Source of the DNA: a virus
Taxonomy: Duplodnaviria; Heunggongvirae; Uroviricota; Caudoviricetes
DNA length: 21,889 nucleotides
Strand: one strand, 5' to 3'
IMG/VR virus record: IMGVR_UViG_3300042988_000374
Coordinates: 128,001 to 149,889 of that record
Within the stretch, counting starts at the first letter, position 1. Every line of letters begins with the position of its first letter. The position numbers were made by a program, and so were the translations under genes. The notes beneath the pieces were generated by a model. That model searched no databases. It was not told the origin of the DNA and worked only from the letters and a program-made list of their open reading frames with translations. Below are positions 3,090 through 9,542 of the stretch, in pieces.

Positions 3090-3716
3090 TTATTGTGCTC
3101 TTAGGATAGCCAGCGCTTGTTCGTAGTGGTGTTGTCTGTCGGCTAAGCCAATATGGCCCCCATTAATGCGTTTTGTGAGCATAGCAAAGTCACCGCTATC
3201 ACAGTATTGATTTAAATTGTTTTGGTCCCAAAACCATCCGGCAGAACTTACCGCACCTGCTGGTGTCTCCATATATGCTACACACTCGTCGAGTGTTACG
3301 TCCAAGTCAGCAGCAAAGCGAGTGTAGTTACTCTTACCAGTTAATTGAATTAAACCACGACCACAGAATTTGTATCCGTCTCCCGACTCTTCTGGGCCAT
3401 TACCCATGCGATTAGCATACACGCGATTAGCAATCTTCTCTGGCTTGCGCTCATATTGTTTTGCCAAGTCTTCAGTAGGGAAATACTTTTTGAATGTAGT
3501 CATCAAACCCTTTGCACCGTAGGAAAGGTTCTCTTTTGTGAAGTTGAACGCCCCACTTTCGTGTGCAGTCTGTGCCAAGAAGGCAGCTAAACGTTCTGCT
3601 GACGTGTCTAACTCGTAATAAGCAGCGACTTCATTGAGTGGTTCAACATACTGTGCCAAGACAGCTTCTTTTGTTTTTGGGCATAATGCCTTTAAGATTT
3701 CTAGTGTTACTTGCAT
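3090..3716 (-). CDS. Glycoside hydrolase family 19 (chitinase-like) endolysin
   Basis: GH19 motifs FLAQTAHESG, ENL, IANRVYANRMGNG, GDGYKFCGRGLIQLTGKSNY, SAGWFW and TKRINGG. AAGGA SD upstream. Confidence 0.93.
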   Translation of the reverse strand: MQVTLEILKALCPKTKEAVLAQYVEPLNEVAAYYELDTSAERLAAFLAQTAHESGAFNFTKENLSYGAKGLMTTFKKYFPTEDLAKQYERKPEKIANRVYANRMGNGPEESGDGYKFCGRGLIQLTGKSNYTRFAADLDVTLDECVAYMETPAGAVSSAGWFWDQNNLNQYCDSGDFAMLTKRINGGHIGLADRQHHYEQALAILRAQ

Positions 3717-3726
3717 TTTAATTTCC

Positions 3727-4677
3727 TTAATCTTTAATATTTACCGTGCTGAAGTTCCAAGTTGTTGGTGCTTTGAGCGCTGCCAATACAACAGCATCAC
3801 TTGCCTCTCTTTTAGTTGAGTAGAATAGTGTGGTCAGACCTTCATATTCTCCACCCATACCTTTTGATACAAACTCAGCATCAGGGAACATGGTGTTATC
3901 AGTGAACACAACGTAATCAATTACGCCATCTGCCTTATGCTCAATGTGTGCGATTTCTTTTGGCGTCTCGTGACCACGAACTTCGATTACCGCGGGCGAG
4001 GTATGTGGTTCAAATTGAATCACCGACACTTTCGAACCAACTGTCATTTGCACTCTGCTACGACCGTCGATAGTTTTTAAATAACGCTGAAACTCAATCA
4101 AGTCGGCAATGGCGGTATGTTGGGATTCAAGTAATGTGTGTTCTGCTAACTGACGAAGAGTACTGCCCAATATATTGCCATCTCTGAATGGAATTCCAGG
4201 AGTATCTTTGCGCTCACGTTTGAATCTGGCGTAATACGCCGCACCAAAGTCTAAGATTTGATCACCAGTTACCATAAACTGGGCAAACTTCCAGTTACTC
4301 TCGTATATCGTTGCGTCACGTTTACCATAAGCCCGCATCATTCGTCCAGCCACCGCATTTGCTTCGTCTTCCACTGCGAGACGCTCTTCATCGTCCATGT
4401 CGTTGTGTGCGATTCCCTGTTCGAATTGCGAATGATGGACCAATTCGTGGGCCAGTGTACGACAGATATCAGCTACATTGCGATTGCCAACGTGTGTCCA
4501 GATTTCACCACGTGAGTTAGTGCTGCCAAATGTTCTGTTGGCTAACACAGGACCCATGTCATTACCGTACTCGATTTTTGGTGGATTCTCTATGCCCAAT
4601 TGTCCAATGGCCCAAGCTGCAAACTTCTTTACTTGCTGGACTTTATCGTTTAGGGTTTTAACTTCGTTGATGCGCAT
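3727..4677 (-). CDS. HEXXH zinc metallopeptidase-like domain with MRINEV leader, fused to a C-terminal domain of unknown function
   Basis: RTLAHELVHHSQ followed by EDEANAVAG (zincin pattern). The C-terminal part resembles the 152-aa and 165-aa proteins at 7477-7935 and 8515-9012. Confidence 0.75.
   Translation of the reverse strand: MRINEVKTLNDKVQQVKKFAAWAIGQLGIENPPKIEYGNDMGPVLANRTFGSTNSRGEIWTHVGNRNVADICRTLAHELVHHSQFEQGIAHNDMDDEERLAVEDEANAVAGRMMRAYGKRDATIYESNWKFAQFMVTGDQILDFGAAYYARFKRERKDTPGIPFRDGNILGSTLRQLAEHTLLESQHTAIADLIEFQRYLKTIDGRSRVQMTVGSKVSVIQFEPHTSPAVIEVRGHETPKEIAHIEHKADGVIDYVVFTDNTMFPDAEFVSKGMGGEYEGLTTLFYSTKREASDAVVLAALKAPTTWNFSTVNIKD
3738..3743 (-). promoter_or_regulatory. Putative T4-like late promoter (TAAATA) for the endolysin, inside the 3' end of the upstream gene
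   Basis: Minus strand reads TAAATA-TTAAAGATT-AAGGA-AATTAAA-ATG(3716). Confidence 0.5.
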
Positions 4678-4681
4678 CTAG

Positions 4682-4701
4682 TATTTATCTGCGACTAAAT
4701 A
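4682..4701. promoter_or_regulatory. Back-to-back divergent late-type promoters (TAAATA on - at 4682-4687, on + at 4696-4701)
   Basis: The 44-bp intergenic gap contains TATTTA-N8-TAAATA. The minus copy is 4 nt from ATG 4677. The plus copy precedes SD AAGGA and ATG 4722. Confidence 0.65.
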
Positions 4702-4721
4702 TGTGTTAAGGAACTTTAAAG

Positions 4722-5546
4722 ATGAAAAAACTACTATTAACGCTGCTCTTAGCAGTATCTACCGCAGCATTTGGTTGGACTCAACGACCACCATTAGCTG
4801 TTGAACAATGCCGTGTTCACGCACCATGGGGATTCCCAGTAACCTCTGGTGTTCAACCACTGTGCCAGCAAGCATATCTAGTTGGTTATGACGCACCAGC
4901 TAAATTGCCAAAGTTTGTCTCGTATGAGTTGCTGCCTAAGAATGCACTTGGTTGTGTACCACGAACCAATGCGTTTGCTACTAATCAATACATTCCTGGT
5001 GGCGCTACACCAGATGACTATGCTGCTACTGGATATGATCGAGGTCATATGGTACCAGATGGTGACCTATCATGGGATGTACAAGTTGAATTCGAGAGCT
5101 TCCTTATGAGTAACATGGCACCACAAGCTGGTTCACTCAATCGCGGTATCTGGAAATTACTGGAGACTAGTGTACGTGGCTGGGTAGTTCAGACTGGTCA
5201 ACCTTATGTGATTTATGCAGGTTCGGTATATGGACCTGGTGACAAAAAGATTGGTTCTGGAGTTGTAGTACCACATGCTTTCTATAAAGTGGTTGTTAAT
5301 GCCGCTACTGGTGAAGTTGCTGGCTGGTGGTTCCCGCATGTTGCACCATATCCGAACTTAGGTAACGACTTGACTAAGTTCCGTAAACCAGTTGCTATGA
5401 TTCAAAGTGAAGCTGGCGTGTCATTCTCATTCCCAGCAGGTGCTACTGAGTTACGTCCTGGCGCTGAATGGAAGGTAGACTACGGTAAGTTGACTAACCA
5501 AAAACGTGCGCGTTGTAAGAATCCAGCAGCCGACGCTAATGAGTAA
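4722..5546 (+). CDS. Secreted DNA/RNA non-specific endonuclease (Serratia NucA/EndoG betabetaalpha-metal family)
   Basis: Signal peptide MKKLLLTLLLAVSTAAFG; catalytic GYDRGHMVP; ESFLMSNMAPQAGSLNRGIWKLLE; VVVPHAFYKVV. This is the only credible plus-strand gene. Confidence 0.92.
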   Translation: MKKLLLTLLLAVSTAAFGWTQRPPLAVEQCRVHAPWGFPVTSGVQPLCQQAYLVGYDAPAKLPKFVSYELLPKNALGCVPRTNAFATNQYIPGGATPDDYAATGYDRGHMVPDGDLSWDVQVEFESFLMSNMAPQAGSLNRGIWKLLETSVRGWVVQTGQPYVIYAGSVYGPGDKKIGSGVVVPHAFYKVVVNAATGEVAGWWFPHVAPYPNLGNDLTKFRKPVAMIQSEAGVSFSFPAGATELRPGAEWKVDYGKLTNQKRARCKNPAADANE

Positions 5547-5562
5547 GATGGTAATTACCATG

Positions 5563-5589
5563 TAAAAAGGACCCAGTGGGTCCTTTTTA
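5563..5589. terminator. Bidirectional intrinsic terminator between convergent genes
   Basis: Perfect inverted repeat TAAAAAGGACCCA-G-TGGGTCCTTTTTA, giving a U-tract on both strands. Confidence 0.85.
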
Positions 5590-5904
5590 TTTCTTTGCTT
5601 GTTGTTTGATTCGTTCTTCAAGCACAGCTATGTGTTGCTTGTTCTCTTGAATCTGATCTCTGTTGACTTGAATTTCTTTTTCTAACTCTTGTCTAAGTTT
5701 TTCTCGTGCTAACTCACTACCTGTATTAGTAGCTTGCTTGTTGTCCGCGGTTACTACTAGACTTGCTTTTTGATTTAGTATTGTTACTTCGTGTTCTAGT
5801 CTACTTACTGCTGATAGTAGATAGCCTACGCCAGCAATTAGTAGTGGTAATAGAGCAAAGATTAACTTCTCAATAAACTGTCCCTTTTCGCTTTGATCAC
5901 TCAT
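5587..5904 (-). CDS. Single-TM protein with C-terminal coiled coil; unknown function (weak holin/antiholin candidate)
   Basis: Hydrophobic LIFALLPLLIAGVGYLLSAV followed by heptad-rich sequence. ATG at 5904 (MSDQ...) just after the upstream stop is preferred over 5916. Confidence 0.7.
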   Translation of the reverse strand: MSDQSEKGQFIEKLIFALLPLLIAGVGYLLSAVSRLEHEVTILNQKASLVVTADNKQATNTGSELAREKLRQELEKEIQVNRDQIQENKQHIAVLEERIKQQAKK

Positions 5905-5909
5905 AGTAA

Positions 5910-7379
5910 TCACCACTTACGACATGACCAGTAACGTGCTTTGGTACGTGGTCCGGGATTATCACAGTTGTGACGAGCGCGAAAGTTCTTACGACGACCT
6001 GGGTTAGATTTCTTAATCTTTGCTCCCTTTTGACCGAAGTTAACTTTCTTTACATTGCCTGTTGATGGGTCTTTGACGTATACTTTAAATTTAGCAACAT
6101 CGCCCTGCATAGGTTTGCCCAGTTGAACTTTGCGGCCTTGATACTCAGCTTCGTTTAGCATCTCTTCGTCGTACCATAGGTCGCCGTATGCTTCGTAGAA
6201 CTCGTCATCGTCGTGATATGTTTCTTCTAGCATACCTTCATTTGTTGGCTTCTTTTCTTTTTCTGCTTGAGCAATGTGTTGTTGAAGCATATCCCACAAT
6301 CTGTCGCTCTCAGATTTTTGCTGTTCTTTTTCTTTATCACTTAACTCCGCACGAGGGCGCTTACCGAATTCTGCTCTAGCAGTTTTAGTGTTTGCTTTTT
6401 TGGCTTCTGTTACCTTTTGATCTACATCTTGTTTGGCACGAGGGTCTTGCCAGTGATACACTAATCCATCTTTACCTAACACTTCACTCTTACTCATTAT
6501 GCCATCTGGTCTAGGTTTTCTTGGTTCAGGGAACTTACCATCATGTGCGCCAATACCGTGTTGTTGTAAGAATGCGTTACCTTCATCAACTTCATCCTTG
6601 TATTTGATGTTGGAAATCTTTTCTAGTTGTTCAGGATCAACATCACGCTGTGTTTTATATTGATAGCGATTCATACGGTCAATGAACATATTCATTGCTT
6701 TATCAATCACTGGATCACTTCCTGTACCTGGCAAACCACCGTGTACTGGTCCTTGTTTGTACTGATCTGCTTTTGCATTCCAATAAGCAACTTGTGAGTC
6801 GGTATATGCATCATCACTTCTTTGATGTCTATCTTGTTGATGCATTCTGGACTGATGAAGTCTATCCATATACTCACGGTGTTTTTGACGCTCGTTTTTC
6901 CTATCATCTTGTGTACCAAGGTAACCTTGATCGCCTAATTCATCTCTAACTCTGTTGAGTACTGAGCCTTCTGCTATACCTTCAGATAACTCTTGAGGTG
7001 TGAAGCCGATATAAGTATCACCATCTTCGTCACCGGCTTGAACTACAAAGCAGCCACCTTCTTCGCTTTCAAGAGGTCCAATTTCCCAACCAATGCTATC
7101 TAATGCCTGTTCAACTTTCTGTTTTACATTATCATCGCCTTGATACCACATACGAGCGAATTTAAGGAATTTATCATCGCTACCGCCATCTGCGGCGTAT
7201 TCATTCAATGCTCCCTCGTTAGCAGCCGCCTTAAAGTTTGCTGCCGTCGGAGCTCCTTTACTACCTGGCTTACGCATTTTTTCTCCACTGCCGGACTTGA
7301 TACGCTCCTGCTTAGCGTGAATGTTTGCCCACAAGCCTGGGCCTGTTTTGCCCTCGCCTAAAATTTCACTAATCTTCAT
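5910..7379 (-). CDS. Modular putative internal head (poly)protein with capsid-targeting-like leader and a conserved basic C-terminal phage domain
   Basis: Leader MKISEILGE; about 10 x-x-E|G/A-type junctions. The C-terminal AEYQGRKVQLGKPMQGDV...RRKNFRARHNCDNPGPRTKARYWSCRKW is a domain I recognise as widespread among T4-like phage hypothetical proteins. Confidence 0.75.
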   Translation of the reverse strand: MKISEILGEGKTGPGLWANIHAKQERIKSGSGEKMRKPGSKGAPTAANFKAAANEGALNEYAADGGSDDKFLKFARMWYQGDDNVKQKVEQALDSIGWEIGPLESEEGGCFVVQAGDEDGDTYIGFTPQELSEGIAEGSVLNRVRDELGDQGYLGTQDDRKNERQKHREYMDRLHQSRMHQQDRHQRSDDAYTDSQVAYWNAKADQYKQGPVHGGLPGTGSDPVIDKAMNMFIDRMNRYQYKTQRDVDPEQLEKISNIKYKDEVDEGNAFLQQHGIGAHDGKFPEPRKPRPDGIMSKSEVLGKDGLVYHWQDPRAKQDVDQKVTEAKKANTKTARAEFGKRPRAELSDKEKEQQKSESDRLWDMLQQHIAQAEKEKKPTNEGMLEETYHDDDEFYEAYGDLWYDEEMLNEAEYQGRKVQLGKPMQGDVAKFKVYVKDPSTGNVKKVNFGQKGAKIKKSNPGRRKNFRARHNCDNPGPRTKARYWSCRKW

Positions 7380-7485
7380 TTACCTGCTCCTTTGAATATT
7401 TGTTTTTGTATTTCATACCACTCGTTCCACGAATCGTTCTTAACTGCGCAGTCGTAGTGCGTACCGTAGTTGATAGTTACTGTAT
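7365..7485. repeat. Diverged 121-bp direct repeat, copy 1
   Basis: Ungapped match to 7921-8041 (offset 556), 19 mismatches by manual count (~84% identity). Confidence 0.92.
7376..7484 (-). pseudogene. Orphan 3' fragment of a second o-spanin allele (no start codon)
   Basis: Translates TVTINYGTHYDCAVKNDSWNEWYEIQKQIFKGAGK*, versus TVTLNYGAYYECAVKTDAWIEWYEIQKQIFEGAGK* in the intact gene. Confidence 0.85.
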
Positions 7486-7935
7486 AAAAGTTGGTAACGC
7501 TGTGTTAAAGCGTAACGACATCATTGTCTGGAACTCACTATAGGTATCTTTACTCGCAAAGGTGAATACGTAATATGTTGCTCTGGTAGTAATTACATCA
7601 TGCGGATATGTTTGTATCTTTGTTCCATCACTGAATTCTAATTGATCATTATTTTTACGAATGAACATCATAGTGCGTGGTGGGTCCAAAACCATAATCT
7701 TGTTATTCAATAAACACACCGGGACGACCATATATTTACCATTTGGTTCAGGAATGGCAGACATTTCGGTCAGACTCCTAAATTGACTTTCCGTCTCAAT
7801 GTCATTGGTTTCAAATAAATTAGACCCGTCATGTAGACTCTCAAAGAGCTCCATCCTATCAATGATACTAATTGATTCGGACAGCTCGGACCATCTCATA
7901 ACTGTTTTTTTAATGATTACTTCACTAATATTCAT
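7477..7935 (-). CDS. Hypothetical protein with MNISEV leader; paralogue of 8515-9012
   Basis: ATGA-coupled to the o-spanin stop. Shares NLFETND/TLFESND, GKYMV/KKYIV, TYPHD/TFPDN and FQTMMSLRF/FTTMMVLKY with the 165-aa protein. Confidence 0.8.
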   Translation of the reverse strand: MNISEVIIKKTVMRWSELSESISIIDRMELFESLHDGSNLFETNDIETESQFRSLTEMSAIPEPNGKYMVVPVCLLNNKIMVLDPPRTMMFIRKNNDQLEFSDGTKIQTYPHDVITTRATYYVFTFASKDTYSEFQTMMSLRFNTALPTFIQ

Positions 7936-8041
7936 TTACCTGCTCCTTCGAATATTTGTTTCTGTATTTCATACCATTCAATCCATGCGTCAGTCTTTAC
8001 TGCGCATTCATAGTACGCACCGTAGTTGAGCGTGACTGTAT
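7921..8041. repeat. Diverged 121-bp direct repeat, copy 2
   Basis: Matches 7365-7485. Covers the o-spanin 3' end plus the first five codons of the next gene. Confidence 0.92.
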
Positions 8042-8198
8042 TAGCAACATCACTTAATTTAGCATCTTCGTTCAACTTCTGAAGCTGAGGACACGCCACT
8101 TTAATTCGTGGCGGTGCTTCTGGGAATTTAGCGGTAACTGGCACAGCGGTAGTGCAGCCAGTTAAGATGATTGTTGCTAAGATTAATGCAATTCTCAT
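7932..8198 (-). CDS. Outer-membrane spanin (o-spanin, Rz1-like lipoprotein)
   Basis: Lipoprotein signal MRIALILATIILTG|C; Pro-rich linker with Cys (FPEAPPRIKVACPQL); NY..Y.ECA helix; lies downstream of an i-spanin. Confidence 0.85.
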   Translation of the reverse strand: MRIALILATIILTGCTTAVPVTAKFPEAPPRIKVACPQLQKLNEDAKLSDVANTVTLNYGAYYECAVKTDAWIEWYEIQKQIFEGAGK

Positions 8199-8513
8199 TT
8201 ACTTTCCCTTGCGCATTACCGGATAGTTTTGTTTATCAGGGCGACCTTCATTGCCATCACTACGATGAGTGCCTTCCTCGACACTCTGCTCATCATCCTG
8301 GAGCGACTGCTTAACCGCACGTGCAACATCTTGTGCCAAGGCAGTTGGATAGTTGTCGCCACCGTAGTTCAACACGTCCATGATGGCAGCATGTACCGTA
8401 CGTTCGTCAGCACGACGAGCCAAGTTAGGATAAATGCGTTCGAATTCACTGTAGATTTCGTTAGCTAGGTCCTCGTTGTCGTTTGATTCTTTAAGGATTT
8501 CGTTGATTCTCAT
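8199..8513 (-). CDS. Hypothetical acidic protein (104 aa) with MRINEILKE leader
   Basis: Start moved to ATG 8513, 1 nt after the upstream stop. Its stop abuts the o-spanin ATG. Internal SVEE|G site. Confidence 0.75.
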   Translation of the reverse strand: MRINEILKESNDNEDLANEIYSEFERIYPNLARRADERTVHAAIMDVLNYGGDNYPTALAQDVARAVKQSLQDDEQSVEEGTHRSDGNEGRPDKQNYPVMRKGK

Positions 8514-8514
8514 A

Positions 8515-9012
8515 TTAAACTTTCTGTTGGGATAATTGGTCGATGCCGATGATGTCTGCCTGTTTAACCACTCGCAGATCATATTTTAATACCATCATAG
8601 TGGTAAAGGCATCATATTTGTCTATTGATTCAAAAAACATTAGTAATGTCGCAACACGGGTGCTGAAGTGATTGTCCGGGAATGTTGAATGTGTACCATT
8701 AGCACGTTGAACACTCCAGCCATCTGGTGTTTTATCTAGTACAGTCATCACTTCTGGATGCTGGAATGACTGCACAGCATTGTTCATCATGCCGTACATG
8801 GCAACTATATATTTTTTATTGGTTACTGGCATGTCACCCGATTGTTGAATGTCTCTAAATTCTGCCAACTTATCGCTGTCATTTGATTCAAATAACGTGT
8901 TGTCAAATAGCAGAGCTTCCGCCAGCGTGATACGCTCCTGAGTAGTTAGACCTGGGAAGTCTGTCCACTGGAATGGCGTCTCATACTTCTTATCTAGCTC
9001 GTGCAACTTCAT
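8515..9012 (-). CDS. Hypothetical protein with MKLHEL leader; paralogue of 7477-7935
   Basis: ATGA-coupled to the i-spanin stop; aligns collinearly by eye with the 152-aa protein. Confidence 0.8.
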   Translation of the reverse strand: MKLHELDKKYETPFQWTDFPGLTTQERITLAEALLFDNTLFESNDSDKLAEFRDIQQSGDMPVTNKKYIVAMYGMMNNAVQSFQHPEVMTVLDKTPDGWSVQRANGTHSTFPDNHFSTRVATLLMFFESIDKYDAFTTMMVLKYDLRVVKQADIIGIDQLSQQKV

Positions 9013-9437
9013 TTAGTGGGCTCCGCTGCACTGTTGTGTGCCTTAATAAATGGTTGTGGGATGACGCATTGACTGTCATATTTGACGACTTCACGGTCAA
9101 TGTATTGTTTGACCACGATTGTTTTTTGTTGTACTTGTGCCTGTTTGCCAGCAACTCGGTCTGTAATCGCCGTATTTGCCTTAGCTGATTGCGCTTCTGC
9201 TCTAGCTAACTTGGCTTCAACTTCGAGGACACGCTCCTGCCATATCTTATTGTCTATGAGTGCACCTTCTAGCAGTATGGAGAGTGCTAGGATGAGCGCA
9301 CCGCCGACTTTAAGTAGGAGAGCATACTGTTTGATAGCTTTTACTCCGCCGAGCGTGGTGCCTACTATAAGTGCCAAGGCACTGGTAATGAGTAGTAGGT
9401 GAATGAACCAGTCTGGAGTGATAGAGAGAATGAACAT
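9009..9437 (-). CDS. Inner-membrane spanin (i-spanin, Rz-like)
   Basis: Two N-terminal hydrophobic segments, an Ala/Glu/Lys coiled coil, and C-terminal YIDREVVKYDSQCVIPQPFIKAHNSAA with a single Cys, typical of Rz-like proteins. Confidence 0.8.
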   Translation of the reverse strand: MFILSITPDWFIHLLLITSALALIVGTTLGGVKAIKQYALLLKVGGALILALSILLEGALIDNKIWQERVLEVEAKLARAEAQSAKANTAITDRVAGKQAQVQQKTIVVKQYIDREVVKYDSQCVIPQPFIKAHNSAAEPTK

Positions 9438-9440
9438 CTC

Positions 9441-9542
9441 TTATTTATCAGCGGAATCGTCCTCGGCAATATCTGGCTGACGGGCGGCTTGTCGTTCGGA
9501 TAATTCCCGTGCAATTTTAACGCTGTGATATTTTTCAGTCAT
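9441..9542 (-). CDS. Small hypothetical peptide (33 aa)
   Basis: MTEKYHSVKIARELSERQAARQPDIAEDDSADK*. ATGA overlap with the upstream stop; fills the intergenic gap exactly. Confidence 0.45.
   Translation of the reverse strand: MTEKYHSVKIARELSERQAARQPDIAEDDSADK
9442..9447 (-). promoter_or_regulatory. Late-type promoter TAAATA heading the spanin operon
   Basis: GATAAATA-AGAG-ATG(9437); same geometry as at 4682-4687. Confidence 0.6.

Follow-up and report, generated by a model that had tools for sequence, protein, structure and literature searches.

Why should five genes in the lysis region of one phage open with almost the same few residues? The question is raised by a 21,889-nucleotide stretch of DNA, here called the window, which forms the end (bases 128001-149889) of the 149,889-bp IMG/VR viral contig IMGVR_UViG_3300042988_000374, assigned to the Caudoviricetes. 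Five minus-strand genes in the window begin with the pattern M-[KRN]-[IL]-x-E-[ILV], which we refer to as the tag. They start at 4677 (M-R-I-N-E-V), 7379 (M-K-I-S-E-I), 7935 (M-N-I-S-E-V), 8513 (M-R-I-N-E-I) and 9012 (M-K-L-H-E-L), and we name each gene by this position. An earlier reading of the window, the original prediction, had pointed out these five starts and had held that the early and fibre genes here begin otherwise; both statements are correct, and no sixth window gene opens with the tag. It had further proposed that the leader is a packaging tag and that the five genes form a variable locus of head cargo. On the evidence assembled below we lean, with some reserve, towards the view that the shared N-terminus would be a capsid-targeting and processing propeptide of the phage T4 type, and the tagged proteins are probably packaged in the head.

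Occurrence of the tag across the contig

A six-frame scan of the whole contig with the strict pattern given above returned 14 matches, compared with 0.87 ± 1.0 (maximum 3) in 30 block shuffles and about 0.23 expected at N-termini from position frequencies. Every match lies at the start of an open reading frame (ORF), 0-38 codons past a stop, with none internal, and the open frames behind the tags are 54 to 489 codons long. The nine bearers outside the window start at contig positions 22272, 34628, 63145, 63995, 70234, 76490, 76651, 79097 and 100561. An all-against-all BLASTP comparison of the 14 links only two pairs, 63145 with 63995 and window gene 7935 with 9012. The codons of the tag vary as well (Lys AAA or AAG; Arg CGC, AGA or CGA; Ile ATT, ATC or ATA), the differences being synonymous and more than one step apart. 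Since the bearers are otherwise unrelated and their tags differ by synonymous codons, it is the peptide that selection acts on, and not the DNA.

A looser pattern adds around 10 starts of the same style, including M-R-A-[KQ]-[EQ]-F, M-K-F-T-E-F, M-K-A-T-E-I, M-K-I-S-D-I and M-K-T-Y-E-F, for a total of about 24 bearers. Nearly all of the additional starts fall inside one probably late operon at contig 63-80 kb. This plus-strand operon (contig 60000-80500) is the densest tagged block, with a variant of the tag on almost every gene; its products include two 280-aa paralogues, a lysozyme-domain protein of phrog_181, a gamma-glutamyl cyclotransferase (GGCT), four Amidoligase_2 paralogues of 645-890 aa, and proteins of 54, 244 and 434 aa that we could not assign. 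As the tag set is genome-wide, the cluster in the lysis region is only one outpost of it. The proposed five-gene cargo locus has to be redrawn on this point: the lysis region is no special locus, and the part of the proposal that survives is exchangeability on an evolutionary scale, which is taken up below.

The tag also extends beyond the six residues that define it. A Glu at residues 7-11 followed by a small residue (Gly, Ser, Ala or Thr), a feature that played no part in the definition of the tag, is present in 10 of the 14 bearers and in 7 of the 228 other proteins (p = 1e-10), and the fuller site [ILV]-x-E-[GSAT] in 7 of 14 as against 2 of 228. This independent Glu-small end indicates that the tag unit is 8-10 residues long, reading Met, basic, aliphatic, any residue, Glu, two aliphatic residues, any residue, Glu and then a small residue. 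The unit sits outside known domains, the GGCT profile for example beginning at residue 15. We also noticed a family of ~55-70-aa proteins in which the tag is joined to a conserved A-G-x-[IV]-A-[ST]-V-A-x-P motif (for example at contig 106182-106385, at 59842 in the related phage G001, and at loci L014, L037 and L040); the same motif heads many large proteins that carry a 135-aa domain described below.

Likeness to the T4 leaders

The capsid-targeting sequence (CTS) of T4 and the variable sets of internal proteins (IPs) that carry it are textbook knowledge. In the T4 sequence, gp24 starts M-A-K-I-N-E-L-L-R-E, followed by S; ipII and ipIII, which adjoin the lysozyme gene e, have identical starts (M-K-T-Y-Q-E-F-I-A-E); and Alt starts M-E-L-I-T-E-L-F-D-E. 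The prohead protease strips the first 10 residues from gp24 (PMC9958956). T4 gp21 cleaves after L/I-x-Glu, and the first 10 residues of IPIII are enough for encapsidation; within this stretch targeting involves residues 4 and 7, and processing residues 8 and 10 (PMC9026906).

With a shift of one residue, the tags of genes 7379 (M-K-I-S-E-I-L-G-E, followed by G) and 8513 (M-R-I-N-E-I-L-K-E, followed by S) give the same string of residue classes as T4 gp24 and the IP leader, and the tag of 8513 is class-identical to the 10-residue peptide that gp24 loses. These two are the only window genes with the full terminal site, [ILV]-x-E and a small residue.

Protease, head module and virion proteins in relatives

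CheckV rates the contig as 42% complete, which implies a genome of ~350 kb and thus a jumbo phage. By DNA polymerase, the nearest cultured relatives are the Pseudomonas jumbo phage PA5oct (50% identity), Atu_ph07 and Rak2-like phages. The contig has 241 called proteins, of which 41 are common to G001, a 342-kb, 92%-complete metagenomic phage, and 33 to PA5oct. A gp21-type protease (Peptidase_S77) is encoded by PA5oct, G001 and four further relatives (G002, G004, G010 and G011), with E values of 1e-25 to 1e-27, and the capsid and scaffold N-termini of the protease-bearing relatives contain L-[FL]-E and then Ser or Gly. All tag-rich IMG/VR contigs tested are 8-19% fragments by CheckV, pointing to ~350-kb genomes, and there is no small podovirus-type genome with the tag and without the protease among them. 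Because each of these contigs is such a fragment, we have found no tag-bearing phage that demonstrably lacks the protease.

A tag-like start is also found within the head module itself. In all four genomes examined (PA5oct, G001, G010 and G011) a conserved gene of 66-81 aa occupies the position of T4 gp67, directly behind the portal gene, with the prohead-core and protease genes a short distance downstream. Its product starts M-K-I-N-D-I in PA5oct, M-R-Y-T-E-L in G001, M-R-L-N-E-F in G010 and M-I-L-R-E-L in G011, and the PA5oct protein, EST35_0150, is annotated as a virion protein detected by electrospray ionization tandem mass spectrometry (ESI-MS/MS). More generally, with a pattern widened after the data had been seen (M-[KRN]-[ILV]-x-[ED]-[ILVF]), 6 of the 10 PA5oct proteins that start in this way are ESI-MS/MS virion proteins, compared with 93 of 461 overall (hypergeometric p = 0.006). 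We regard this enrichment as supportive, not decisive. The virion mass spectrometry (MS) data come from an omics study in which N-termini were not mapped and which mentions neither propeptides nor a CTS (PMC7318152).

Promoter-like motifs, operons and timing

The motif ATAAATA is present in 26 copies on the contig, about 20 of them immediately upstream of gene starts, among which are those of tail-fibre genes, of the i-spanin-like gene and of several tagged genes. Within the window, gene 4677 has a copy of this late-type promoter-like motif (4682-4688, minus strand) 4 nt ahead of its ATG. Another (9442-9448, minus strand) heads an operon that encodes, in order, the i-spanin-like protein, tagged proteins of 165 and 104 aa, the o-spanin, and tagged proteins of 152 and 489 aa, such that the four window bearers other than 4677 belong to one translationally coupled operon under this motif. 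Across the contig, ATAAATA heads the operons of 12 of the 14 tagged genes. The claim that all five window genes lie downstream of TAAATA late-type promoters therefore stands for the longer motif, directly before 4677 and at the head of the operon for the other four, and falls for bare TAAATA, which is not enriched in the window (16 copies against 14.5 expected). We further observe that ATAAATA(C) is often placed just 4 nt before the ATG (ATAAATACTAG-ATG) without a Shine-Dalgarno sequence, a spacing which suggests leaderless or near-leaderless late mRNAs.

Proposed mechanism and alternative explanations

As we picture it, the tag would be an amphipathic peptide of 8-10 residues, with Met, a basic residue, hydrophobic residues at 3 and 6-7 and Glu at 5, usually ending in a second Glu at 8-10 that precedes Gly, Ser, Ala or Thr. 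The peptide would dock late-made proteins on the scaffolding core of the assembling prohead, and the phage's gp21-type prohead protease would then cut it off behind the Glu of [I/L/V]-x-Glu. What stays in the head with the DNA would be the mature protein or, for a modular polyprotein, the pieces cut after the Glu of V-A-E-G or I-A-E-G joints, and the five window genes would be part of a genome-wide, evolutionarily exchangeable cargo set. For this phage we infer docking, cleavage and retention, as we would any role in injection or counter-defence. A bolder extension, possible in our view although rather doubtful, is that the whole of this abundant ~350-kb aquatic jumbo clade loads dozens of swappable enzymes and mini-modules into its heads by means of interchangeable labels (M-K-I-x-E-I, M-R-A-x-E-F and the T4-like M-K-T-F-x-D-Y-L-x-E, plus V-A-E-G joints cut after Glu), processes them with the protease and delivers them with the DNA as a ready-made immediate-early proteome. 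The cargo would then include amidoligases, GGCT, a metallopeptidase-like domain, nucleotidyltransferases, HD and NUDIX proteins.

We prefer the T4-type propeptide because it explains the peptide-level conservation, the Glu-small end, the tagged gene of the head module and the virion detections. The packaging tag of the original prediction gains from the T4 likeness, from the proteases of the relatives, from the tagged gene in the portal-protease interval and from the PA5oct enrichment. Several observations weigh against it. A full cleavage-type site is present in only two of the five window genes: 4677, 7935 and 9012 have just the I/L-x-E of residues 3-5 and no such full site at residues 7-11. 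No Peptidase_S77 gene is found on the contig, which at 42% completeness lacks the head module altogether. As to the check that had been suggested, late-gene enrichment together with a gp21-like protease, the protease is seen only in relatives, and bearers 22272 and 34628 sit in an early-looking block. In PA5oct the strict pattern of the original prediction, used in place of the widened one, picks out 3 virion proteins among 6 (p = 0.10), MS detection is biased to abundant late proteins, and both PA5oct and G001 have far fewer tagged genes than the contig. Finally, some homologous bearers are enzymes of nucleotide metabolism (cytidylyltransferase-like, P-loop kinase, deoxyribonucleotidase) with no obvious need for packaging.

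The tag could alternatively be a recognition peptide for a phage machine other than the prohead. Candidates are the phage's Clp and chaperone set (ClpX, ClpA-like, ClpP, ClpS, DnaK, DnaJ), which might act as unfoldase or translocase or in timed degradation, and a docking role in which the peptide is a helix that assembles enzymes. Genes for such a proteostasis set are present both on the contig and in its relatives, and several bearers are soluble enzymes. In addition, ClpP of PA5oct is itself a virion MS protein, and the ClpA and ClpX of these jumbo phages have been speculated to be translocases in virion assembly (Iyer et al. 2021; PMC7824862). However, G001 and PA5oct share the Clp set and carry few tags, and neither the Glu-small end nor the likeness to the peptides removed by T4 gp21 is accounted for, which makes this explanation unlikely. 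To our knowledge, the tag also does not fit any of the published N-terminal motif classes of ClpX.

An explanation closer to the head, to which we give little credence, is that the tag marks accessory proteins of the prohead core or scaffold which are cut and expelled at maturation (compare T4 gp67, gp68 and gp22), making it a head-assembly signal with no cargo and no injection. The sole bearer conserved across the relatives is the small gp67-position gene near the protease, and modular proteins with many Glu-Gly joints recall core proteins that are cut into peptides (PMC9026906), but several tag-like proteins of PA5oct are present in mature virions and the bearers include enzymes and large multidomain proteins, unlike scaffold proteins. 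It is highly improbable that the tag is a feature of the nucleic acid or of expression with no role as a peptide, whether an A/T-rich unstructured start favoured on late mRNAs, some of them leaderless, or a short stretch of homology through which cassettes are exchanged: the residues are kept despite synonymous, non-adjacent codon changes (K/R via AAG, CGC, AGA and CGA), the Glu and the hydrophobic classes are conserved position by position up to residue 10, and the full tag is absent from major late structural genes (the fibres here; capsid, scaffold and portal in relatives). This leaves to its credit that a 124-nt repeat flanking the gene at 7477-7935 terminates within the tag, that ATAAATA is merely 4 nt from several ATGs, and that M-K-I is a common start in phages.

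Putative cargo genes of the window and their exchangeability

The proteins that a T4-type propeptide would bring into the head are diverse. Gene 4677 (3727-4677, minus strand) encodes a protein of 316 aa whose N-terminal module is metallopeptidase-like, with an HExxH motif, and whose C-terminal half could not be assigned; its Pfam matches to DUF6782 and Peptidase_M78 are weak. Its start is kept as M-R-[ILF]-x-E-[IV]-K in most of 25 homologues, while the first ~8 residues are absent in two. Elsewhere the HExxH module either stands by itself with the tag or follows a cytidylyltransferase-like or GNAT domain in a fusion. A protein Atlas search with the 316-aa protein returned viral hypotheticals only, plus a weak Peptidase_M78 lead, and the possibility that its C-terminal half contains a third copy of the 135-aa domain was dropped as unsupported (BLASTP E 1.4).

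Gene 7379 (5910-7379, minus strand) encodes a 489-aa modular protein in which phrog_16028 (aa 14-54) and DUF5754/phrog_7595 (aa 408-489) are the end modules and an I-A-E-G linker lies at aa ~135. Its small end modules are all that it shares with its metagenome homologues, of which there are at least 8000. Among the best 120, 54 start M-K-I-[NQ]-[DE]-I and continue to E-G, and 32 start M-(x)-K-T-F-K-D-Y-L-K-E, which corresponds class for class to the T4 CTS. In 45,000 residues of the homologues the string G-V-A-E-G, which in the query takes the form I-A-E-G, was counted 65 times, and we observe it as a near-invariant joint between small cationic modules (of the G-L-W-A-N-I type, Cys-rich knuckles and DUF5754).

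Genes 7935 (7477-7935, minus strand; 152 aa) and 9012 (8515-9012, minus strand; 165 aa) are paralogues (28% identity, E 6e-18) built on a ~135-aa domain that belongs to no Pfam family. An AlphaFold2 model of the domain from the 165-aa protein, with a predicted local distance difference test score of 86, consists of helices and a small beta-barrel. A Foldseek search of the model against the PDB gave no significant match (best E 0.05), and VIA-align wide returned only weak small-beta-barrel rows (PWWP/Tudor/KOW-like, Z <= 4.4). The domain has 142 cluster representatives. Nearly all stand-alone forms of ~150 aa carry an M-K-I-x-E or M-R-A-x-E-F tag, and other members are in proteins of 300-1500 aa together with cytidylyltransferase-like, HD, NUDIX, GNAT, ParB-N, sigma-70 region 4 or GH19 domains. 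The last of the five, gene 8513 (8199-8513, minus strand), encodes an acidic protein of 104 aa for which no match was found in Pfam or PHROGs.

The same cargo modules are seen in metagenomes behind three types of tag, namely the window type, M-R-A-x-E-F and M-x-K-T-F-K-D-Y-L-K-E. We considered whether the flavour of the tag marks lineage, with the T4-like flavour confined to T4-like phages, and rejected this, as both flavours are present on the same jumbo-phage fragments. Their co-occurrence on single contigs implies that they are alternatives within one system. The idea that the tag is a substrate mark of co-encoded amidoligases was likewise abandoned, Amidoligase_2 being present in only 1 of 5 tag-carrying related genomes, so that the two are not linked. 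In G010, a 340-kb relative, the Amidoligase_2 domain (198822-199265) lies within an open frame of 1697 codons, possibly a giant polyprotein.

Within the window, two copies of a ~124-nt direct repeat with ~84% identity flank the gene at 7477-7935. The upstream copy (7920-8043, minus strand) contains the genuine 3' end of the o-spanin gene together with the beginning of gene 7935, and the downstream copy (7364-7487, minus strand) an o-spanin 3' end, ATGA and the first five codons of a tag. Judged from its sequence, the repeat is the footprint of an insertion or duplication via recombination at the junction. Exchangeability of the cargo genes on an evolutionary scale is supported by this repeat and by the recurrence of the domains in many architectures.

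Lysis genes and other contents of the contig

The lysis region occupies 3-9.5 kb of the window, which also carries tail-fibre genes, a thymidylate-synthase homologue and a MoxR/VWA pair. A GH19-type endolysin gene (3090-3716, minus strand) lies directly downstream of tagged gene 4677. The i-spanin-like membrane and coiled-coil protein (9009-9437, minus strand; phrog_4952) is encoded by the first gene of the operon, its stop overlapping the start of 9012, and the stop of the o-spanin lipoprotein gene (7932-8198, minus strand; Pfam LysC, phrog_456) overlaps the start of 7935 as ATGA. A second membrane and coiled-coil gene is found at 5587-5916. Set between tagged genes is the sole plus-strand gene of the region (4722-5546), which encodes a signal-peptide-bearing, NucA-like nuclease (Endonuclease_NS, E 2e-36).

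A megablast search of the region against cultured phages gave 0 matches. The related-locus search with the 316-aa protein found no relatives, and that with a piece of the DNA polymerase found one 20-kb relative and nothing else. The DNA polymerase of the contig is in at least three ORFs (contig 97384-99075, 95210-95788 and 93021-94133), all of which match one 932-aa polymerase of G001; in PA5oct the same gene is split by a Hef-like homing endonuclease. The proteostasis genes lie at contig 23000-34000 and 112000-123000 and comprise ClpX, ClpP, ClpS-like, ClpA-like, DnaK, DnaJ and GroES-like genes, plus IF-1, assigned by eye from N-termini and from BLAST matches to G001 and PA5oct. A papain-family cysteine protease gene (Peptidase_C1; contig 107989-108849, minus strand) has its own ATAAATA motif, and its block includes a tagged nucleotidyltransferase-like protein (M-K-I-S-D-I), a 1430-aa protein that we could not assign and a gene starting M-K-T-Y-E-F.

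Implications and comparison with known systems

A literature search on the literal tag strings gave nothing relevant, and no literature was found on this tag or on CTS-like leaders in PA5oct- or Rak2-like phages or the aquatic jumbo clade. If our reading is right, a simple sequence rule would allow the packaged, and possibly injected, proteome to be read directly from genome sequence in a jumbo-phage clade that is large, uncultured and common in the environment. For hundreds of families without an assigned function, such as DUF5754, phrog_16028 and the new ~135-aa domain, it would tell where they act, and the principle of the T4 CTS would reach far outside the T-even phages. The short natural tags and cleavable linkers could also serve to load foreign proteins into large capsids.

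The mixture of cargo domains recalls the polyvalent proteins of phages and conjugative elements set out by Iyer and colleagues in 2017 (cited in PMC7824862), which are reportedly predicted, from just such a mixture, to be delivered with the DNA. Here too the cargo domains are promiscuous, their fusion partners being HD, NUDIX, GNAT, ParB-N, lysozyme, peptidase and nucleotidyltransferase domains. Polyvalent proteins are very large and multidomain, whereas most bearers here come from small individual genes that are tagged one by one; those of the window are 104-489 aa long, and lengths of 600-1500 aa, with HD, NUDIX, GNAT, ParB_N or GH19 partners, are seen only among their metagenomic homologues. 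A shared tag or linker is, as far as we have checked, not described in that work.

The Dar system of phage P1 (DarA, DarB, Hdf, Ddr, Ulx) is likewise a head-packaged set whose incorporation is tied to capsid morphogenesis (PMC9024508, PMC12810830). Its proteins are loaded in an ordered, protein-dependent hierarchy and are not known to have a short common leader or homology to the proteins here. In phiKZ-like giant phages (phiKZ, 201phi2-1, SPN3US), a prohead protease related to that of T4 cleaves many head-internal proteins, some of them paralogous, behind Glu (PMC9026906). The ejection and inner-body proteins of these phages have long propeptides, in contrast to the tags, with no short common N-terminal address described, and their protease motif is S/A-x-Glu, a small residue standing where the tags have an aliphatic one.

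The comparison with the T4 CTS, carried by IPI-III, gp24 and Alt and cleaved by gp21, goes furthest. In both cases a ~10-residue N-terminal peptide is borne by unrelated, fast-evolving proteins, has hydrophobic residues at i and i+3, and ends in [I/L]-x-Glu before a small residue; in both, genes that carry it, here probably late ones, adjoin an endolysin gene, as ipII and ipIII adjoin e; and a gp21-type protease is found in the clade. The differences are that the tag has one residue less and is degenerate, unlike the identical copies of ipII and ipIII; that there are at least 14 bearers (~24 by the loose pattern) compared with 3-4 in T4; that several flavours of tag are found on one cargo domain; that the bearers include large enzymes and modular polyproteins with joints of the G-V-A-E-G type; and that the host of the system is a ~350-kb aquatic jumbo phage clade only distantly related to T4. 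Taken together, these similarities and differences suggest that the tag system is probably a variant of the T4 capsid-targeting system.

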